Of a stretch of 64,000 bases of DNA, positions 26,332 to 42,118 are shown piece after piece. Positions within the stretch are counted from its first letter, which is position 1. Every line of letters starts with the position of its first letter. The stretch comes from an uncultured bacterium. Its GTDB lineage: Bacteria; Patescibacteriota; Gracilibacteria; Absconditabacterales; Absconditicoccaceae. The stretch lies in NCBI GenBank assembly GCA_947169045.1, contig CAMVOC010000002.1, forward strand, positions 17,762-81,761. The letters are read 5' to 3'. The notes below the pieces were generated by a model. That model worked only from the letters and a program-made list of their open reading frames with translations. It searched no databases and was not told the origin of the DNA. Both the position numbers and the translations under genes were made by a program.

Positions 26332-28242
26332 TTATTTCACCCAAAACCACGTTGTCGCTACTTCATCTTTGGATAAATAATATGATTCACCACTGGTAAA
26401 CCTAAAACTTCCTTCCGTCAACGATCCATTCGTTAACGTAAAATTCACTCTTCCAACGCGTTCACCAGATGCCAAATCATACAGTTCACCATACCAAACG
26501 AAACTATTATCTCCGACATTAAACTGCGTAATAGACAGCTTTTTAATCTGATATCTCGTACCAAACAGTTCAAAATATCCAACTTTAAACGCCGAATTAT
26601 TCAGGGCCAAGACATCTACATACACTTTCGCAACTTTTTGACTAGACCCTTCAGCACTCACCTCTTCCATTGTCTTCACAATTTCATCTGGCAAATGCAC
26701 ATCATTAAGATTAAGGAACATCGTCAACCTCGTTTTGAGACGATAAAAGAAAATCGCCACTTCATACCTAGCAATTGGAGACGAGAAAGTCACGGTATCT
26801 TGCGGAGAAATCAAACTTAAATCAATTGCCTTCTGATAATATTCTACCCATCGTGGAGTCTTGCTCTCATCCAAAGCTCTACCCTCAACTAAACGCACGA
26901 GCATCGCAATAAATTCAGCTTTTGATACCGTCTGACGTGGATTAAATTTTCCATTCGAACCGTTCATCACCCCATAAAGACAAACATTATGAATAGCAGA
27001 AAAAAAAACTGAGCTCTCAGGGACGTCTGAAAACGTACAAGCGCTTTCATTTCTCACCGTCGTAAGGTCTACAGCTTCAGCAAAGGCGGATAACATTTTC
27101 GCCATCTGTTCACGCGTTACCGTCTCAAAAGGCATAAACGCTAGCACCTCATTATAGCTGGTAATACCTTTATCATACATCCACTTCACCGCCTCATGGA
27201 ACTCCGGATCATCCACTAGCGCCTGATTCCCAGCAATCAAACTCAGATCCAGACCCCCATCCCCCAATGCTACCGATCCTGTCTGACAAGTAGCACCTGA
27301 AGAGCAGAGAGCTTCATCAGGATTCTGTTGATCCCAAGTCGTTTGAACCTGCTGAAGCAAAGCATTCAAATCACCTTTTAATTTAGATAATTGCAATTCA
27401 CGATTACTAGATCCATCAGGGTTAATAATCAGATTTTTAAACCTATAAATAAGTAACGCCGTTTGCTCCCTCGTTAATGGCAAATCGATACGTGATAAAT
27501 TAGTATCATTTGTTACTTCCAAATATTTCATCTTCACGTAATATTCAATCCATCGCGGAGTCGACTGTTCATTGGACATCTTACCTTCAAGCATTCTCGT
27601 CAATACAGCCAAGATCTGTCCTTTCGTCAACGTATCATGAGGCATATACGCATGAGTTTTATCATTTCCTCTAAAGATTCCCCACGTACACACCTGAGTA
27701 ATCCAATCTGCAAGCGTAGGATCAAAAAGATCTTCATCCACAAAATGACAATCTAAAGCTGACTCAACCACAGGAAATTGCAATGTTTCAAACAGCTTTC
27801 CAATCAATTTTGCAGCTTCTTCTCTCGTTACATAATCTTTTGGACGATAATCTGCAACCACATCATATTTGGTAAGACCATTCGAATACATCCAATAAAT
27901 TGCTTCTTCCAATTCACTTCCCGTCCCCAGAGACGCTAATGCCGTCCCACGATAGAACGAATCACTAGAAGTCGTCTCAGTAGTAGTATCTAACGTTTCA
28001 AGTCCAGAACCGTCAACAGCAGCATTTTCATCAGAAGCATCTGCATCTCCCTGCTCAGCATCCTGCGAGAAATACTCCCCAACATTTTCCACAAAAATCC
28101 TCTCTTCTCAAGAAAGAATATACACCTGCTTATCAAGCAAATTCACCTGCACTTCATACTCCGCAAATCAAAAAGAACATAAGAAACAAAAAGCTGAAAT
28201 CCCAAGCAAAGAAGCCAAAGAAATCACAGAAGTACGCATCAT
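26332..28242 (-). CDS. Cell-surface protein with four SLH-like domains (636 aa)
   Basis: Signal peptide MMRTSVISLASLLGISAFCFLC. Repeated SLH-like units: AIYWMYSNGLT..YVTREEAAKL, FVDEDL..ADWITQVCTWGIFRGN, AVKWMYDKGIT..TVTREQMAKM, FSDVPESSVFFSAIHNVCLYGVMNG. Beta-rich C-terminus. Confidence 0.8.
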
Positions 28243-33269: not shown

Positions 33270-34019
33270 ATGGGGATTCTGAGCGTCATTTTAGTAGGAA
33301 GTCTCTATGGATTTGGAGCTCTCCTTGACCATCGAGGAATCAGCGCCGCAAGTGGACTTTCACGAATAGGAAGTTTTATCCTGTATCTTAGTCTGCTTTT
33401 TCTTTTCCTGATGTTTCGAAATAGACAATGGAAAAGTAAACAAACGCGATTTCTAGCGCTCATTCGAATCCTCCTCCTCGCGATCGTAGGCATCTTCGGT
33501 CTCCATTACGGAATCCAAAGCATCTTACTCCTGCTCGTTGCTGCCTACGTTGAAGAATTTCTCAAAATCACCGCAGCACAAACACAATCAGATACAACGC
33601 ATTTCAATTCAGATATTCTCACCTTTGCTCTCCTGATCGCCTTGGGATTCAGTATCGTAGAAAATCTTCTGTACATAGGGCTCAATTTTTCTAGTGGAGA
33701 AGCGGGAGGATTTGGTTTATTCGTAGGGCGTTGAATTTTTGCCTCTGGAGTACATATCTTAGCCACAGGAGTCATCGCATTACTCCTCTTCAAGCTCTAT
33801 CAAAGCACACAAATGTTTGCACATAAAAGCGGAATAGCATGAACCGGTAAAATTCTTGCGCGCGTAATCTTAGGAATGCTTGCAGGAGTAGGGTTACACT
33901 TTGGATATAACTTTTGCATTGCTCAAGGATGGACACGAGTATATGGAATCGTCGTAATTGGAGGATTCTTTTTGCTCAGTTATCTGCTTTTTTTATCTGA
34001 TAGACTATACCAAGACTAG
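33270..34019 (+). CDS. prsW: PrsW-family intramembrane metalloprotease
   Basis: Polytopic. Motifs VEEFLK, GFSIVENLLY and GVHILATG. ATG at 33270. TAG at 34017-34019 abuts the atpA start codon. Confidence 0.8.
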
Positions 34020-35549
34020 ATGCCTGCATCTCCTCTCCTCGAAAAAATTACAAAAAAAATAGAAAAAGCTGACTTATCAGGCGGTTTTTCCAAAGCAGGA
34101 ACTATTATCGAACTTCGTGATGGAATCGCAATGATTCAGTGATTAGCGAATATTGCTTTTAACGAAATTGTAGAATTCCCCAAAAATATCCTGGGAGTAG
34201 TCTTAGATCTCTCTGCAAAGACCACAGGAGTACTCATTTTAGGAGACGCATCTCAACTTGCTTTAGGAGATCGCGTGATTCCCACAGGGAAAGTATTGAG
34301 TATCCCCGTTGGAGAAGCATATATCGGACGCGTAGTAGATGGATTTACAAAACCAATAGACGGGAAATGAGAAATCGTAGCTTCTAACCGAGGATTAGTA
34401 GAAGCGCTTGCCCCAAAAGTAATGGATCGTCAAGAAGTCACGCAACCTGTAAAAACCGGAATTGTGGCACTCGATTCCATGATTCCTATTGGACACGGAC
34501 AAAGAGAATTAATCATTGGAGACCGCCAAACAGGGAAAACCACCCTCGCTCTAGACATCCTCATTAATCAAGCCAAAGAGCAGGAAGACGTCATCGGAAT
34601 CTACGTAAACATTGGACAAAAAAACGCCAGTGCAAAACACCTGGTAAAAACTCTCAAAGAGCACCACGCAATGGATCAAACAATTGTAGTAAACGCTGCT
34701 GCCTCAGATAGTGCCGCAATGCAATATCTAGCTCCCTACGTAGGATGTACGTTAGCAGAATATTTTATGCACCAAGGGAAAAAAGTAATTATTGTCTATG
34801 ATGACCTAACAAAACACGCAATTGCTTATCGTGAAATTTCACTCCTACTACATCGTCCACCAAGTCGTGAAGCCTATCCAGGAGACATCTTTTATCTGCA
34901 TTCTCGCCTACTAGAAAGAGCCGCACAGCTCAATAAACAGTTAGGAGGAGGGGCAATTACCGCCCTCCCCATCGTCGAAACCTTAGAAGGAGATATTTCT
35001 GCCTACATCCCAACTAATATCATTTCCATCACCGACGGACAAATTTACCTCAACGAAGACCTCTTTCATGAAGGAACAAGACCCGCAATTGACGTAGGAT
35101 TATCTGTTTCCCGTGTAGGATCTACCGCGCAAACTGCATTAATGAAAAAAGTGACAGGAAAACTAAGAATTCAATTGGCAAGTTTTCGTGAATTAGCGAG
35201 TTTTCTCCAATTTGGATCAGAAGTAAACGAAGAAACCGCCATAAAAATTAAGAAAGGACAGATTCTCACAGAACTTTTTAAGCAATCTCAACACGACTTA
35301 CTCTCTCCAAGCCAAGAAATCGTCCTATTATACGCATGAATTAACGATTATTTAATAGACTTCCCCCTCAGTGACATTCCAGCCATCAAACAATCACTAT
35401 TTCTCAAGCTAGAGCAACAATACAGTGACCTAAAAATTTCCTTAGAACAGGACGAAATTTTCAATACAGAACTAGAAAAACAGATTATAAAGCTGATTAA
35501 AGAAGTTTTAAAAGAGTTTCCCTTGCTTTTTCCTTGAAAATCAGTATAG
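34020..35549 (+). CDS. atpA: F-type ATP synthase alpha subunit (orphan copy, no neighbouring atp genes)
   Basis: [40 protein letters not shown]-[TGA]. The N-terminal 134 codons (34020-34421) and a C-terminal extension join track ORF 34422..35339 across TGA. TAG at 35547-35549. Confidence 0.93.
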
Positions 35550-35666
35550 ATAGAGCTATCATTCTTCACTCTATTTTTCTCCCTCAATCGAGGAAGAACC
35601 TCAAAAATAGAGAAGTTTGCAAACCGTCATTCATAATATCTTTTATTTATTATTCCAGTTCTCATT

Positions 35667-35843
35667 ATGGCAAAAAAGAAAAAAGGTGGAGTAATTAAAG
35701 TAGCTATGGTCTGTGCAGATTGTAAAGCTACCAACTATTACACTTCTATCAACAAAGCAATAAGACCAAAGCTCACCATCAAAAAGTACTGCAAACACTG
35801 CAAAAAAGCTGTACAACACAATTCTAGAGAAAAATTAAAGTAA
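35667..35843 (+). CDS. rpmG: 50S ribosomal protein L33
   Basis: 58 aa, below the track cutoff. Sequence: MAKKKKGGVIKVAMVCADCKATNYYTSINK...KKYCKHCKKAVQH, with two CxxC pairs. Confidence 0.88.
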   Translation: MAKKKKGGVIKVAMVCADCKATNYYTSINKAIRPKLTIKKYCKHCKKAVQHNSREKLK

Positions 35844-35888
35844 TTTTTCATACGTTTTACACATTTTTATCTTATTGTATCATTCTCA

Positions 35889-36188
35889 ATGTTAACAATT
35901 AGACTTTCCAGACATGGAAGATCCAAAAGACCCTTTTACAGAGTAGTGCTCACCGAGCATACAAAGCCTGCAAAAAGCGGATATATGCAAGTTTTAGGTT
36001 CTTTCGATCCTCTCAAGCATACGTTTGAAGCAGATATCGAAACGATCAAAACATTAATCAAAAACGGTGCTAAACCAAGCGAAAGGATGGCAAAACTATT
36101 ATACCAAGCTACTAAAGACGAAACTTTCCAGAAATTTTTTGTAGAAAGAGAAAGAAAAGGAGTTACCAAGAAAGAAAAGAAAGACTAA
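35889..36188 (+). CDS. rpsP: 30S ribosomal protein S16
   Basis: MLTIRLSRHGRSKRPFYRVVL...GSFDP is the typical S16 N-terminus. Confidence 0.93.
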   Translation: MLTIRLSRHGRSKRPFYRVVLTEHTKPAKSGYMQVLGSFDPLKHTFEADIETIKTLIKNGAKPSERMAKLLYQATKDETFQKFFVERERKGVTKKEKKD

Positions 36189-36219
36189 ATAAAACCTTTT
36201 ACTTAGTATCTTTTCTAAC

Positions 36220-36645
36220 ATGCCAGAAACCTTCAATCATATGTTTGATAAACCTGAAGATGTTATCCTTTTCGTATTGGCTGTCGCAGTATTAATTGTA
36301 TTTGCAGGATGTATCTATGCATTCTTTCGCGCAATCTTCTTCTTCATCTTTTCCAAAGGAGACGATTCAACCATAAAAAAAGCCCGAAATAGTATTAGAT
36401 ACATGGTAATTGGACTATTTCTTGTCATTATGCTATTATTCGTAGGACCTCAAATCCTCAGATTATTCAGACTACAAAATTATCAAGAATATACTGCAAA
36501 AAATGTCTTCGTCAAAATAGGAACAGTAATTACAGGAATCGGAGAAATCATCGGAATCATCGTAAGGGATTATCCAACGACCACAGGAATTGGATTAGAC
36601 GACAATCCTTCGTGGGATACAACATCAGTAAGTTATCAATTATAA
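36220..36645 (+). CDS. Hypothetical small membrane protein (141 aa)
   Basis: Intact standard-code ORF with two or three TM helices. No motif recognised. Confidence 0.6.
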   Translation: MPETFNHMFDKPEDVILFVLAVAVLIVFAGCIYAFFRAIFFFIFSKGDDSTIKKARNSIRYMVIGLFLVIMLLFVGPQILRLFRLQNYQEYTAKNVFVKIGTVITGIGEIIGIIVRDYPTTTGIGLDDNPSWDTTSVSYQL

Positions 36646-36671
36646 AAAAGACGTCCTTGTGACGTTTTTTT
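36644..36671 (+). terminator. Rho-independent terminator
   Basis: AAAAAAGACGTC-CTTGT-GACGTTTTTTT. Confidence 0.7.
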
Positions 36672-36753
36672 ACATCTCAGTCAGCTTTTTATACGTATGA
36701 TTTAACCTTGATAATAATAAGTGATACAACTTACTTATTTTTAATACCAACAA

Positions 36754-38085
36754 ATGAAAATACAATTATCCGAACATTTCAATTATAAAAAACTCCTAAC
36801 CTTCACAGCTCCTACAATAATTATGATGCTCTTTAATTCTATCTACTGAGTAGTAGATGGTTTTTTTGTATCAAATTACGTCTGAAAAGATGCATTCACA
36901 GCTGTAAATTTAACCTTTCCTGTGATTATGATCATCGCATCAATTGGGTTTATGGTAGGAAACGGAGGAAGCGCCTTGATTTCAAAAACACTTTGAGAAA
37001 AGAACATAGAATGAGCTAAAAAATATTTCTCAATGCTTGTATATTTCCTAATTATCTGCTGAATAATCGTAAGTATCGCCTGATTCTTCTTGATCGAGCC
37101 TATCATGACGATGTTAAAAGCGTCAGGAGACGTTTTAAGTAACTGTATTATCTATGGAAGAGTGCTATTCTTGTCATTGGTCTTTTTTATGCTTCAGCAC
37201 GTATTTCAGAACTTTTTTATAGTAAACGAGAGGCCTGATTTATGACTAAAAGTGGCAGTCATCATGTGAATCATGAATATTCTCCTAGATTATATTCTGA
37301 TTTATATATTAAAGTTATGAATTTTATGAGCTGCATTAGCCACCGCAGTAGCCCAATTCTTAGGAGCAACGATCCCATTGATCTACTTCATAACGAGTAA
37401 AACATCGAAATTAAAATTTGTAAAAACAAGACTAGAAGTATTACCTATCATAAAAAGCTGTATCAATGGAAGCAGTGAAATGCTGACTACGTTCTCTATG
37501 TCATTACTCAACATTTTATTCAATTACCAACTCATTAAATTTTTCGGCAATGACTGAGTTGTCGCCTATGGAATTATTATGTACGTAGGTTTTATCTTCA
37601 CGGGAATGTATTTAGGATATTCATTCGGAGTAACGCCTATCGTAGGATATAATTATTGAGCAAAAAATGCTAAAGAATTAAAAAATATCTTATTCAAAAG
37701 TAGTCAGATTTTATTTCTAGCTGCGATTATCCTGAGTTGCTCTGCTGAGATTTTTTCAGGATTTCTTGCAAAAATCTTCGTGAGCTATGATGCTAATTTA
37801 TTAGCATTTACAACCAAAGCCATCAGACTCTACGCTTTAGGATATATTGTACAATGGATAAATATCTTCTGATCAGCTTTCTTTACTGGTTTAAACAACT
37901 GAGTAGTATCAGCAACCATTTCATTTTTGAGAATGTTTGTATTCCAAATCATTATGATCTTTGCTATTCCCTATATATTTGGTAGTGAGTGGATTTGGGT
38001 ATCCACAACTTGTGCAGAGGTGCTTTGAGCTTGTGTGACTATCAGTTTCTTGATCGGAATGAGAAAGAAGTATGGGTATGTGTAG
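36754..38085 (+). CDS. MATE-family multidrug/oligosaccharidyl-lipid efflux transporter
   Basis: 444 codons with no TAA/TAG but 15 in-frame TGA (all codons checked). About 12 TM helices. N-terminal APTIIMMLFNSIY-G-VVDGFFV is typical of MATE. Because of the TGA density, the track shows no ORF on this strand at all. Confidence 0.85.
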
Positions 38086-38091
38086 ATTTTT

Positions 38092-38127
38092 GAAATTCTC
38101 CGAATTAAGGGGAACTTCTATTTTTTT
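38092..38127 (+). terminator. Rho-independent terminator after the MATE gene
   Basis: Stem GAAATTCTCC / GGGGAACTTC (8 of 10 paired) followed by T7. Confidence 0.6.
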
Positions 38128-38198
38128 AAAAAAGCAATAAAAGATCTATTTTATAATATCTTACTTGATTTTTTAATAAAGATTTCTATTATGAAATC

Positions 38199-38349
38199 GC
38201 AGATAATCAAGTAAAAAAGTATTTGGTCAAACCAAACGCTATTTTTTAACCAAGAAATTAAGCATCCTATTGATGGTTAATCTTGGTTGAGAGAAACTCG
38301 TTTTTGATCAAATACTTGATTATCTGCACCCATCATTAGGGTGCTTTTT
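38199..38349 (+). ncRNA. Candidate structured RNA / attenuator: long imperfect hairpin plus intrinsic terminator
   Basis: Perfect 15-nt arms GCAGATAATCAAGTA (38199-38213) and TACTTGATTATCTGC (38313-38327). The pairing extends through GTATTTGGTCAAA / TTTGATCAAATAC. Inner hairpin TTAACCAAGA / TCTTGGTTGA. Then GCACCC-ATCATTA-GGGTGC-TTTTT (38326-38349). Confidence 0.45.
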
Positions 38350-38364
38350 ATAACACAAAAAGTC

Positions 38365-38393
38365 CTTAATGCTTTTACATCACAAGCATTAAG
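38365..38393 (+). promoter_or_regulatory. Hairpin ending 1 nt before the methyltransferase start codon
   Basis: Perfect 10-bp stem CTTAATGCTT (38365-38374) / AAGCATTAAG (38384-38393). ATG at 38395. Confidence 0.5.
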
Positions 38394-38394
38394 C

Positions 38395-39258
38395 ATGAAT
38401 TACAAGCCGTTTGTAAAACGGGTCTGATGAAAAAGACAGTTATTAGAACAATTTAAAAACTTATATCCCAAAGATTTCAACGAATATTATGAACCATTCG
38501 TATGAGGGTGAGCGGTATTCTTCGATCTCAGGATCAATTTCTGATCGAAGTTTACAGCTCGCCTTTTTGATTTAAACGAAGAATTAGTAGTTACATATAA
38601 TATTGTGAAAAATGACACAGATAAGCTAATCCACTTATTAAAAATTTTTCAAAATAAACATTCAAAAGATTTTTTTATAGAAATTAGAAGCCGAGATAAA
38701 AATGCAAATTTCAAAAATGAAAAATCAAAAATAGAAAGAGCTGCAAGATTTATTTACCTTAACAGAACCTGCTTTAACTGAATGTACAGAGTAAATTCAA
38801 AATGAGAGTTCAATGTTCCATTTTGAAAATACTCTAATCCGAAAATTTGTGATGAAGAATGACTTTATTTAGCTAAAGAAGCATTACAAAATACTACAAT
38901 AGAAAATGCAGATTTTTCAATAGTAGAGAGACAAGCTAAAAAATGAGATTTTGTATATTTTGATCCTCCTTACGATGTTTTAACTGATACAGCGAATTTT
39001 ACAGATTATAATAAATGATGATTTGGTAGAGATGAGCAGGCAAGATTATTTAATACTTTTGATAAATTGAATAAAAAATGCTGTTATACAATGCTTTCAA
39101 ATCACAACACTCCATTTATTCGTGATTTATATAGGAGTTATAGAAAAGAAATAGTTTTAGCAAAAAGAATGATAAATTCAAATGCAACTAAAAGATGAGC
39201 GATTGAAGAAATCGTAGTTTTAAATTATCAAAATTTAAATGAAAAAGATAAAAAATAA
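38395..39258 (+). CDS. Dam-like (D12 class, alpha group) N6-adenine DNA methyltransferase
   Basis: MNYKPFVK-[CGG]-V-[TGA][TGA]-KRQLL (KWAGGK motif). EPFV-G-G-G-AVF. FIYLNRTCFN-G-MYRVN. FNVPF-G-KY. FDPPY (38962-38973). 13 in-frame TGA (all codons checked). TAA at 39256-39258. Confidence 0.9.
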
Positions 39259-40519
39259 CGATATAGCATGGGAAATATTATTTGATAGATTTAAAATTTT
39301 AGAACAGATAGAAAAAAATTGAATTTTTCAAATTACAGCAGATCAGATAAAAGAAGAAAGAGAACCAAGGTTAATGACAAAATTTGATCATGCTGATGAT
39401 TTACCAAAAATTTTTAAGAAAAACCATATTTCAATATTACCAATAAATCGTTGAACATATGTATTATGAAAGTTTTCAACCCATGAAAATATAAAATATG
39501 ATGAAAATATACCATTTCATAAAATAAATTTAAGACCAGACCTTGAAAGTTTAAATGTAAAAGATTTATTTTCAGAAGCTGTAGCATTAAATTATGCTCT
39601 TGCGACAGGTATGTTGAGAGAGATTGTTGGAGAAGATTGTGAATTAACCGTATCGTGAAAAATGTCCTCATCAAAATTTGAATTTAATGTACAAGATTCA
39701 ATTTATGAAAAAAAATATTTGATTGAGGTTGATAAAGCTCAAGTAGAAATTGATTGATGATATGAATCTACAAATAAATTAATGATTATTGAAGCTAAAA
39801 AATGAAAGTGTGATGATTTTATTATTAGACAATTGTATTATCCATATAGATTACGAAAAGAAAAAATAGATAAGGAAATCGTCCCAGTGTTTATGACAAT
39901 ATCTAATGGAATTTTTAGTTTTTTTATTTTTAAATTTGAAAACAAAAGTGATTATAATTCGATACGTTTAATAAAGCAAGTTAATTATGCAGTTGATTTT
40001 GAACCGATAACAAAAGATGATATAAATTATATAGTTAATAATATAAAGATTATAGATGAGCCAAGAGTTCCTTTTCCACAAGCAAATGATTTTGAAAAAT
40101 GTATCAATATTTTGGAAATATTAAAAAGTTGAGAAAAAACAAAAGATGAAATTAAAGATGAGTATAATTTTGTTATAAGGCAATCTCATTATTATGTTGA
40201 TGCTGATAAATATTTATGATTAGTTCAAGACAATAAGAGAACAGTTTACCTTACAAAATTATGAAAAAAAATAATTTCAAGTCCAAGAAAAGAGAGAAAT
40301 TTATTATTAATAAAACAGATATTTTCTCATAAAATTTTTATGGAAGCTTATAAATATAAAACCAAAAAATGAAAAATTAATAAAAACACCTTAGTAAATA
40401 TGATGAAATCTTGTGATTTATATAATATATGATCTGATGTAACATTTGGTAGAAGAGCATCAACAATTACTTGACGATTAAAATGGATTGATAAAACAAT
40501 AAACGAAAAAGAACTATAA
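39239..40519 (+). CDS. Putative type II restriction endonuclease, PD-(D/E)XK fold (426 aa)
   Basis: ATG 39239 overlaps the methyltransferase 3' end by 20 nt. 13 in-frame TGA and no TAA/TAG (all codons checked). VEID-GG-YESTNKLMIIEAKK fits D-x13-E-x-K. The C-terminal ~130 aa look like a helical/wHTH domain. No family name could be assigned from memory. Confidence 0.6.
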
Positions 40520-40588
40520 CATTTTTTCATTTAAACCTCTACTCCACACAATAACATCTTCCATCAATAAACAGCTCCACAAACCAAA

Positions 40589-40617
40589 CAAAAAAAGCCA
40601 CAACTCCCGTCGTGGCT
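40589..40617 (-). terminator. Rho-independent terminator after obg
   Basis: On the minus strand: AGCCAC-GACGGGAGTT-GTGGCT followed by a T-run. Confidence 0.65.
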
Positions 40618-40636: not shown

Positions 40637-42118
40637 CTAATACACAATATATCTATCATCCAATCCCTCATAATAACTCTTAATTTTCAGCACGTCTCCC
40701 TTTCTCATCCCTTCCGCTTCTAATAACTCAATAAACCCTTTCTGCTGAAGTTGCTTCCAAAACCACATTTCAGCCTCATCATTTCCCCATGGAGTAATGA
40801 AAACCAGCCTACAAACCTCAGGATTTTGAACTAAATACACATTGAGATAAGTTGAAGTAACCTCATCCAAATAATCATGCTCAATCAGCCAAGGCTTCTC
40901 TTCTTCTGTCACATCTACAATCATATCTTCCTCATCAGCTTCAACAGGCAAAATCGGCTCAACATCCGGCATCTCTTGAGCTGGGAGCCTTTGCAAAAGA
41001 CGAGCTAAAGCTTGTTTCCACGCTTCTATTCCCTGCATTGTACCTGCAGAAGTAACAAAAAGATTATTCCTGATCAAATCTTCAGAAAGCTTAGCATACT
41101 GATGCTCTTCTAAAAAGAGAGAAAATCTGGCTACAAACTGCTTTTTGTACTCCTCCAAGACTTCATCATCATTAACCAAGTCGCACTTATTAAGGACAAA
41201 AAGAATCTTTTTGGAAATGAGTAATTCATCATTTGCATACACATTAAAAGCAATCAGATTTTCTTCCTGTTCAAAAGCAAAGTAATACTCTCCTTCATCA
41301 TCCAAAATCTTCTCCTCAATATACTCTTTAATCTCATCAAAAAGTTCCAAAGTCTCTCAAATCCCCTTATCATACCTAGATAAATCTGCAACCATAGCGA
41401 AAAGCCTCGCTTTCAGGACATGACGCAAAAAATCATTACCAAGACCTTTCCCATCAGAAGCCCCTTTAATCAATCCAGGAATATCTACCATATTAAACCT
41501 AAAATCCCCAACCGTAACAGACCCCAAATTAGGAATCAACGTCGTAAAAGGATAATCCGCAACCTTCGCTTTCGTCGAAGAAACACAGTTAATCAAAGAA
41601 GACTTTCCAACACTAGGATTTCCTATCAGTCCAACGTCTCCCAAGAGTTGAAGCTCTAAAATTAATTCTTTTTTATGACCAGGTTCTCAAAGGAGAAAAA
41701 AATTCGGGAATTGACGAACGGAATCCTTGAAATGAATGTTTCCCTTTCCACCAGAACCTCCTGGAAGTGCAGTCCATTCCTCGCCATCACGAGTAAAATG
41801 ATGTAATACCTTTCCAGTATCAGCATCTTTCACCAGTGTCTCTACTGGAACCGTTAAAATCAGATCCTCAGCATCTGCACCATATTGATCCTTCGTCCTA
41901 CCACTCTCGCCATTATCAGCTTTATAATTCTTTTTATACTTAAATTCTAGCAAAGTATCTTCATCCTTACTTGCCTGAAAAACAATGGAGCCACCACGAC
42001 CTCCATCTCCTCCATTAGGTCATCCACGAGGGATACCAGGAGCTCTGTATCCACTGGCAATTCCATTTCCTCATTTACCAGATTCTACCGTAATTTTAAC
42101 TTCATCATAAAATTGCAT
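40637..42118 (-). CDS. obg: GTPase Obg/CgtA with C-terminal OCT domain
   Basis: Track ORFs 40637..41350, 41357..41644 and 41687..41953, plus the N-terminus, share one frame (gaps checked). Motifs: GK-G-GNG, GGDGGRGGS, GNPSVGKSS, DIPGLI, NKCD. Confidence 0.95.

Follow-up and report, generated by a model that had tools for sequence, protein, structure and literature searches.

A stretch of 64,000 nucleotides (nt) from a metagenome-assembled genome of the Absconditabacterales (assembly GCA_947169045.1, contig CAMVOC010000002.1; hereafter the window, whose coordinates are used throughout) carries, between the ribosomal protein gene rpsP and the GTPase gene obg, a MATE transporter gene followed by a putative type II restriction-modification (R-M) cassette, which consists of a non-coding leader, a DNA methyltransferase gene (M) and a restriction endonuclease gene (R). 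The host genome (G000) is a metagenome assembly of 873 kb in 13 contigs, in which the region occupies 54.4-58.3 kb of contig C2. We conclude with good confidence that the R-M cassette was recently acquired by horizontal transfer from a low-GC, recoded sub-clade of the same genus, and that the MATE gene arrived earlier from the same pool. Host and cassette share a genetic dialect in which UGA encodes glycine and CGA and CGG encode tryptophan (translation table 25 plus CGA/CGG = Trp).

The boundaries of the transferred cassette (38155..40526, plus strand) are defined by one blastn segment against contigs L052 and L053, which extends over 2376 columns at 86.4% DNA identity. Homology starts 240 nt 5' of the M start codon and ends 7 nt past the R stop codon, and the DNA flanking the cassette is unrelated between the host genome and L052 on both sides. 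L052 is a 107-kb chromosomal contig with a GC content of 30.5%, where the best match to the nuclease (P0001) lies among housekeeping genes. At the amino-acid (aa) level, the two hosts are 91% identical in M and 81% in R, compared with 83% in GroEL, 55-64% in GatB and a median of 68% over 12 genes. The GatB of the L052 host is 91-93% identical to that of four low-GC congeners (G003, G005, G006 and G008) versus 64% to that of G000, so the cassette passed between two deeply separated sub-clades within the genus. Most glycines of the low-GC sub-clade are encoded by TGA (obg, for example, has 30-34 TGA codons there versus 4 in G000), and a donor from this TGA-rich sub-clade of about 30% GC explains both the low GC of the cassette and its TGA-dominated glycine codons.

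The composition of the locus was compared with a genomic baseline of 36.5% GC (1-kb windows: mean 36.5%, standard deviation 3.6 points). The segment 36700-40530 has 28.1% GC overall, with a profile that is not uniform: 33.5% in the MATE gene (36754-38085; 14th percentile of 1-kb windows), 27% in the intergenic region (38086-38394), 27% in the methyltransferase gene (38395-39258), 23% in the nuclease gene (39239-40519) and 39% in obg (40637-42118), with 500-bp windows near 39% again from ~40500 onward. Jointly, the R-M gene pair has 25.0% GC, which places it in the lowest 1.2% of the 1-kb windows of the genome. An earlier reading of the bare sequence, here called the original prediction, had described an AT-rich island of 3.8 kb; the AT-rich segment is real, but the strongly AT-rich stretch spans only ~2.4 kb (about 38.1-40.5 kb; leader, methyltransferase and nuclease), the 33.5% GC of the MATE gene being unremarkable. 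The in-frame TGA counts given there are exact (15 in the MATE gene and 13 each in the methyltransferase and nuclease genes), and the description of TGA as the dominant glycine codon holds for the methyltransferase (13/15, 87%) and the nuclease (13/17, 76%) but not for the MATE gene, where TGA ties with GGA (15/37, 41%). Genome-wide, TGA makes up 19% of glycine codons in G000, and the methyltransferase and nuclease genes rank at the 99th and 97th percentiles of TGA fraction, respectively. On computation, neither GC nor codon usage is uniform across the region.

No homologue of the nuclease was found in 40 sampled relatives, nine congeners included, and the methyltransferase has only distant homologues, in 3 of these 40. 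In a search of 5.8 billion proteins, the 21 clusters nearest to the nuclease (P0001-P0020 and P0025; 49-78% identity) all have TGA at conserved glycine columns, read as W by the gene caller, and many also have R at conserved tryptophan columns; matches below ~49% identity use the standard code. The original prediction had deduced a donor of the same dialect from the TGA codons, and this is borne out by the recoded state of these 21 nearest homologues and by the closest copy, which resides in a low-GC member of the same genus. The chromosomal context of the recoded cassettes differs between hosts, and all six contexts examined are chromosomal, beside genes such as those for GatB, GroEL, TopA, a Mur ligase, trigger factor and Pth. 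In a scan of named genomes, the best 80 matches were all from standard-code hosts, likely because recoded genes were broken at TGA during match confirmation. In a recoded lineage of 35% GC, represented by two species (L172, L173, L176 and L177), the same R-M pair stands between topA and a Mur ligase gene, without the leader (the gap is 21 nt) and with far fewer TGA codons; at this site the pair looks to have been kept vertically.

The insertion point is a strain-variable slot. A contig of a closely related strain, assembled independently from another run (L183; Logan contig, SRR12529211), is 98.97% identical to G000 over 34897-38085, which covers the 3' end of atpA, rpsP, a pilin-like gene and the MATE gene, and departs from it directly after the MATE stop codon. 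The next 1 kb (L183 3204-4207) is TGA-rich, has a GC content of 23.9% and finds no match anywhere in G000. It carries two open reading frames (ORFs) with in-frame TGA: one of 151 aa with no family match and, on the opposite strand, the C-terminal portion of another D12 methyltransferase, for which PDLC03257 is the best PADLOC model. In the closest species, G004, the order is obg, a 218-aa class I methyltransferase dependent on S-adenosylmethionine (SAM), the pilin-like gene and rpsP, with neither MATE nor R-M genes. The 218-aa gene (L021 4115-4771) starts 12 nt past the obg stop codon, has a host-like GC content of 35% and has no homologue in G000. G004 was considered as an exact empty site and rejected, since its 774-bp interval holds this methyltransferase gene that G000 does not have. 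Three states of one intergenic slot are thereby documented, in G000, L183 and G004. The neighbours of obg are unrelated in the other congeners, and rpsP and obg are found close together in one relative only, G004, with the pilin-like and 218-aa methyltransferase genes between them; the gene order is not conserved across all relatives.

The slot bears none of the usual marks of dedicated mobility. Pfam searches detected no integrase or transposase domains in 36.2-40.6 kb and no phage or plasmid genes in 36.6-40.6 kb, there is no tRNA gene in or beside the region (the nearest on contig C2 are at 26846 and 85844), and a search of the flanks for direct or inverted repeats as insertion scars returned only short AT-rich matches at chance level. 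The domain and repeat searches agree with the original prediction, which had listed no integrase, transposase or flanking direct repeats, and the region is not an integrase-mediated genomic island. Insertion more likely proceeded by DNA uptake followed by recombination into the terminator-flanked intergenic slot, whose cargo would then have been exchanged between strains via the conserved flanks.

Three other origins were weighed, of which delivery by a code-25 phage or plasmid, in place of direct transfer from the chromosome of a related cell, survives best, although we consider it unlikely. Most predicted phages of Absconditabacteria and all their prophages use code 25 (PMC10746230), and viral and prophage contigs from standard-code hosts do carry R-M pairs of this family. 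However, a search of 2.9 million viral contigs, queried with single proteins and with an alignment of the recoded clade, found no close relatives of the cassette; it returned only standard-code relatives of at most 47% identity, all without in-frame TGA. Together with the six chromosomal contexts out of six and the absence of phage, plasmid and integrase genes from 36.6-40.6 kb, this leaves the phage or plasmid donor admitted by the original prediction without a sampled example.

Still less probable is vertical inheritance with repeated loss, according to which the MATE and R-M genes are ancestral, were lost in G004 and the other congeners, and owe their low GC and high TGA content to weak expression or to an AT bias of the family. 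In standard-code genomes, too, the R-M genes of this family are indeed richer in AT than their hosts, and within G000 the TGA fraction of a gene falls as its GC rises (r = -0.67). Vertical descent is at odds, however, with an M protein 91% identical to the congener copy despite 64% for GatB and 83% for GroEL, with the other genomic context in L052 and the sharp end of homology at both cassette ends, with the different cargo at the same point of a 99%-identical strain, and with the absence of the nuclease from 40 of 40 relatives. An assembly or binning artefact, in which a low-GC segment of another organism was wrongly joined, is very improbable: the assembly consists of 13 metagenomic contigs and strains vary at exactly this point, the kind of site where assemblers err, but the segment lies inside a 123-kb contig with both flanks syntenic to G004, is written in the same rare double dialect as the host, and would require two false joins with no repeat common to the junctions.

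Recent transfer from the low-GC sub-clade therefore stands as the preferred origin of the cassette, and several points weigh against it. The donor itself is unsampled and the best DNA match reaches only 86%, so that direction and date are deduced rather than observed. Low GC also marks this R-M family in standard-code hosts, where the genes lie 5-15 points below their flanks (viral and prophage contigs), and composition alone therefore cannot name the donor. The cassette junctions are known from metagenome assembly alone, and the L183 contig ends before the right-hand junction. The enzyme activities of M and R and the function of the leader are predictions. Finally, the clades of the gene trees described below were drawn from the nearest database matches only, among which more distant recoded members, and with them further imports, would go unseen.

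The MATE gene (36754..38085, plus strand; 443 aa; Pfam MatE E = 1.6e-41) constitutes a separate module, as judged from its near-normal GC, its presence in strain L183, which does not have the R-M cassette of G000, and its distinct homology breakpoints. DNA common to the low-GC congeners spans about 36700-38095, compared with 38155-40526 for the R-M cassette, and the single 3.8-kb insert of the original prediction thus resolves into two modules with separate histories. A weak terminator-like hairpin with a T run follows the gene (38096..38114, plus strand; terminator scan); it is not homologous to L052 and lies outside the transferred cassette. The MATE protein is 83-87% identical to those of G005, G006 and G008 (78-81% at the nt level), genomes whose median orthologue identity to G000 is 55-58%, and it ranks first or second in similarity among 24-25 orthologues in comparisons with G005 and G008. 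MATE was not found in G004. The copies in G005, G006 and G008 have 29.5-30% GC and use TGA for 22-28 of their 36-38 glycine codons, and the G000 gene (33.5% GC, 15/37 TGA) looks to have drifted partly toward the composition of its host. As part of the two-module reading, which we hold to be quite probable as a whole, the MATE gene would have been acquired earlier than the R-M cassette, likewise from the recoded low-GC branch of this genus.

A deeper origin of the MATE gene may lie outside the recoded bacteria. Its database matches comprise ~50 recoded clusters (64-96% identity), followed by standard-code proteins (P0168-P0240) that are 56-59% identical to the recoded clade and nearly all 443 aa long. 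One of the standard-code genes (L178 4001-5332, GCA_948660835.1) is readable by table 11, ends in a TAA stop and stands in a context of 24% GC, which its neighbouring genes suggest may be Firmicutes-like. Taken together, these matches suggest an inter-phylum import into the recoded genus.

The dialect of the host was determined from codon-by-codon alignments between G000 and congener orthologues. CGA stands opposite TGG at 77 positions, CGA at 25 and CGG at 4, and none of the arginine codons AGA, AGG, CGT and CGC is among its common partners; CGG is aligned with TGG 8 times, likewise without an arginine codon among its common partners, and TGA is aligned with GGN. CGT, CGC, AGA and AGG exchange with one another and with lysine codons. 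The tRNAs of G000 with anticodons UCG and CCG are 59-62% identical to tRNA-Trp versus 38-48% to arginine tRNAs, and the tRNA with anticodon UCA is nearest to tRNA-Gly. The cassette follows the same rules. Both CGA codons of the nuclease fall at tryptophan columns (W in 97/101 and 101/101 standard-code homologues), the single CGG that the original prediction had placed at the KW position of the Dam protein (38419-38421, aa 9) corresponds to W in 24 of 24 standard-code Dam homologues, and TGA occupies glycine columns at 10 of 13 sites in the nuclease (Gly-majority columns) and at 11 of 13 in the methyltransferase. The combined reassignment of UGA to glycine and of CGA/CGG to tryptophan has already been reported for Absconditabacterales (PMC13092985), and the dialect claim is correct but not new.

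Gene trees were built with TGA-derived positions masked, from the 120 nearest database matches per family. In the nuclease tree, 22 recoded sequences form one clade (Shimodaira-Hasegawa-like approximate likelihood ratio test, 100) versus 99 standard-code sequences; in the MATE tree, 46 recoded sequences form one clade versus 71. Neither recoded clade includes a standard-code member, and both have standard-code neighbours. The standard-code sister groups, at 47-49% identity for the nuclease and 56-59% for MATE (mostly with the same 443-aa length), imply past imports in both families. Standard-code genes contain no in-frame TGA and so are readable in a cell with UGA = Gly, where misreading would be confined to TGA stops, which are read through, and to CGA/CGG arginines. 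The original prediction had called a standard-code cassette untranslatable in this host, which is wrong for import; in place of the total barrier it implied, the data fit an asymmetric one, in which import from standard-code donors would be possible and export of TGA-laden genes blocked. Genes would enter from standard-code bacteria and then gain TGA and CGA/CGG codons (GGA to TGA; TGG to CGG and on to CGA), after which they could work only within the recoded gene pool, as behind a one-way valve.

A broader proposal, possible but put forward tentatively, is that the code acts as a ratchet, maintaining a closed one-way pool with rare imports (one detectable per family, from AT-rich standard-code bacteria), lock-in by synonymous changes of single bases, and circulation among recoded lineages on cassettes with their own RNA leader. 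If this were true, with far fewer imports and no exports genome-wide relative to standard-code controls of the candidate phyla radiation, it would provide the first quantitative natural measure of a genetic-code firewall. Until now, arguments about genetic isolation by a changed code have drawn mostly on principle and on engineered strains. The locus is a concrete natural case with sharp boundaries, in which a defence cassette passed from one deep branch of a recoded genus to another, and it shows that recoded bacteria swap genes mainly among themselves, the cassette being ordinary gene transfer. The donor's codon habits (TGA-rich glycine) offer a marker for following gene transfer among recoded lineages.

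The cassette belongs to a low-GC, TGA-rich accessory class of G000. Among 625 scored genes, 56 (~9%) have less than 32% GC, and these use TGA for 61-78% of their glycines versus 12-16% in core genes; they are grouped into few islands, and the recurrence of the pattern in ~9% of genes makes a systematic test feasible. The probable source of these island genes is the same pool of low-GC recoded donors. The islands lie at C1:15-35 kb, C7:14-29 kb and 36.8-40.3 kb, C4:82.9-86.8 kb, C5:36-39.8 kb and C8:15.5-16.8 kb, and sampled members encode products for polysaccharide synthesis (a GT2 glycosyltransferase and a sugar epimerase) and defence-type proteins (an AAA_21/SMC-like ATPase and an N6_Mtase). 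A different coding style was seen in one congener bin: a contig of 27% GC binned with a recoded congener (L061; G009:C46:1-10000) has almost no in-frame TGA, a coding density of 0.81 with code 11 versus 0.82 with code 25, and a Dam methyltransferase whose direct translation reads KWAGGK. The contig could represent a phage or element compatible with code 11, such as those described in PMC10746230, or bin contamination.

The first enzyme of the cassette (38395..39258, plus strand) is a 287-aa protein predicted to be a Dam-family (D12 class) N6-adenine DNA methyltransferase (PF02086, E = 2.6e-66). It scores 287.8 bits against TIGR00571, far above the cut-off of 114.85, and matches PADLOC MTase_II with E = 4e-96. 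Its translation contains EPFVGGGAV and YFDPPYD, corresponding to the SAM-binding and catalytic (DPPY) motifs. The second (39239..40519, plus strand), whose gene overlaps that of M by 20 nt, is a 426-aa putative type II restriction endonuclease of Pfam architecture DUF6996-DUF6997-DUF7226 that matches PADLOC REase_II PDLC03513 over its full length (E = 1e-87). Three residues, D172, E185 and K187, are invariant in 68 sequences. The AlphaFold model of the nuclease has a predicted local distance difference test score of 93.7, and its best partial fold matches are a Cas4-family PD-(D/E)XK nuclease for the core (probability 0.97) and MarR-type winged helices for the C-terminus; a PDB sequence search gave no match, and fold searches gave domain-level matches only. 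The modelled protein thus resembles a PD-(D/E)XK core with a C-terminal winged helix.

M lies directly upstream of R in the recoded hosts and in at least 20 standard-code viral or prophage loci. Based on the motifs of M, the adjacent nuclease with its catalytic motif and the persistence of the pair across hosts, M and R are predicted to be a type II R-M system, in which the methyltransferase would mark the cell's own DNA and the nuclease would cut unmarked incoming DNA. The observed/expected ratio of GATC in G000 is 0.67, a mild depletion that ranks third among 4-base palindromes after GGCC and GCGC, and it is only suggestive of GATC as the target. The domain searches sustain all the gene identities proposed originally, namely S16, MatE, a D12/Dam methyltransferase, a DUF6996-DUF6997-DUF7226 protein (PADLOC REase_II) and Obg.

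The 240-nt leader travels with the cassette and is more conserved relative to L052 than the coding part. At the 5' end of the cassette lies a promoter-like site (38165..38192, plus strand; TTGATT, a 16-nt spacer and TATTAT), found by consensus scan only and conserved in L052, which may drive expression of the pair. It is followed on the same strand by a 7-codon mini-ORF (38191-38214) that overlaps the left arm of a long imperfect hairpin of 129 nt with perfect 15-nt outer arms (38199..38327; inverted repeat I14). A terminator-like hairpin upstream of M (38326..38344; GCACCC...GGGTGC plus T5, from the terminator scan) is identical in L052, and a third hairpin (38365..38393), predicted by folding, ends one base 5' of the M start codon, where it could hide the ribosome-binding region. 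The 211 nt that include all three hairpins (38190-38400) fold at -71.1 kcal/mol (z = -9.2). Relative to L052, pairing is kept at all eight substitutions in paired positions of the three hairpins; two are compensatory and six are single-sided changes to or from G-U, pairs that form only in the plus-strand RNA. As a comparison of two sequences, this conservation of pairing is suggestive only.

A search with nhmmer in the other recoded R-M loci and in the whole of G000 located the leader only in L052 and L053, and an Rfam scan of 35.5-41.0 kb (E <= 1) gave one chance-level match only, so that the leader corresponds to no known riboswitch or RNA family. It probably controls, at the RNA level, when or how strongly M and R are expressed. 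The long hairpin was also considered as an integron attC site and rejected: the hairpin is complete, lies 5' of the genes and has no recombinase nearby, intI not having been searched genome-wide. The core of the long hairpin's right arm, TACTTGATT, has a third copy at 38161-38169, within or upstream of the promoter-like site (region 38153-38222). This copy could pair alternatively with the left arm, or the three copies could be protein-binding sites.

The flanks of the slot are conserved on both sides. Read with table 25, the gene order is rpsP, the 141-aa pilin-like gene, MATE, the D12 methyltransferase, the 426-aa nuclease and a convergent obg on the minus strand, and the whole segment is internal to the 123-kb contig with both flanks syntenic to G004. 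On the left, rpsP (35889..36188, plus strand; ribosomal protein S16, Pfam Ribosomal_S16 E = 7e-13) is syntenic in G004 and in strain L183. The pilin-like membrane protein gene (36220..36645, plus strand; weak T4SS_pilin and Mbov_0395 pilin-like matches; 91% aa identity to G004) is the last one common to G000 and G004, DNA homology stopping at 36646. On the right, homology restarts at 40638 with obg (40637..42118, minus strand; Pfam GTP1_OBG E = 2.5e-51; 84% aa identity to G004). The terminator scan located a hairpin between A and T runs (36651..36665), assigned as the terminator of the rpsP/pilin-like unit, and a 9-bp stem followed by a T run (40596..40617, minus strand), assigned to obg. The bracketing hairpins of the original prediction therefore exist, as terminators belonging to the pilin-like gene and obg rather than as the edges of an island. 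Further to the left, a stand-alone gene for an ATP synthase alpha subunit, atpA (34020-35549), is present in strain L183 and not at the same locus of G004, where DNA homology to G000 skips from window position 34015 to ~35513 (L021 6028 to 5956). Its sole other homologue in G000, on contig C1, is 25% identical.

Dam-family (D12, TIGR00571) methyltransferases are known to pair with GATC-type nucleases such as DpnII and MboI. The cassette methyltransferase is like those systems in its KW-GGK N-terminal motif, its FxGxG and DPPY motifs and its score far over the dam cut-off, but the partner nuclease belongs to another, structurally unsolved family (DUF6996/DUF6997/DUF7226, PDLC03513). Neither the kind of element nor the idea of a code barrier is new; it is the code of the cassette that is unusual. 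The code of SR1/Gracilibacteria as a cause of genetic isolation is a hypothesis of Campbell 2013, as cited and discussed in PMC8080830, which also reports 126 genes derived from horizontal gene transfer in Vampirococcus and treats the isolation idea in both directions. One-way isolation fits the recoded clades, which contain no standard-code members, but the standard-code sister groups show in addition that import from standard-code lineages has happened in both families.

In many bacteria, type II R-M cassettes are mobile accessory genes that occupy strain-variable chromosomal slots, also called defence hot spots. The present cassette resembles these in its overlapping M-then-R operon, in being AT-richer than its host, in its patchy occurrence in close relatives without an integrase, and in the other methyltransferase that occupies the same position in a 99%-identical strain. 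It differs from them in its code, since with UGA = Gly and CGA/CGG = Trp its copies work only in recoded hosts, and in the conserved, highly structured RNA leader of ~240 nt that it carries in place of a controller (C) protein.

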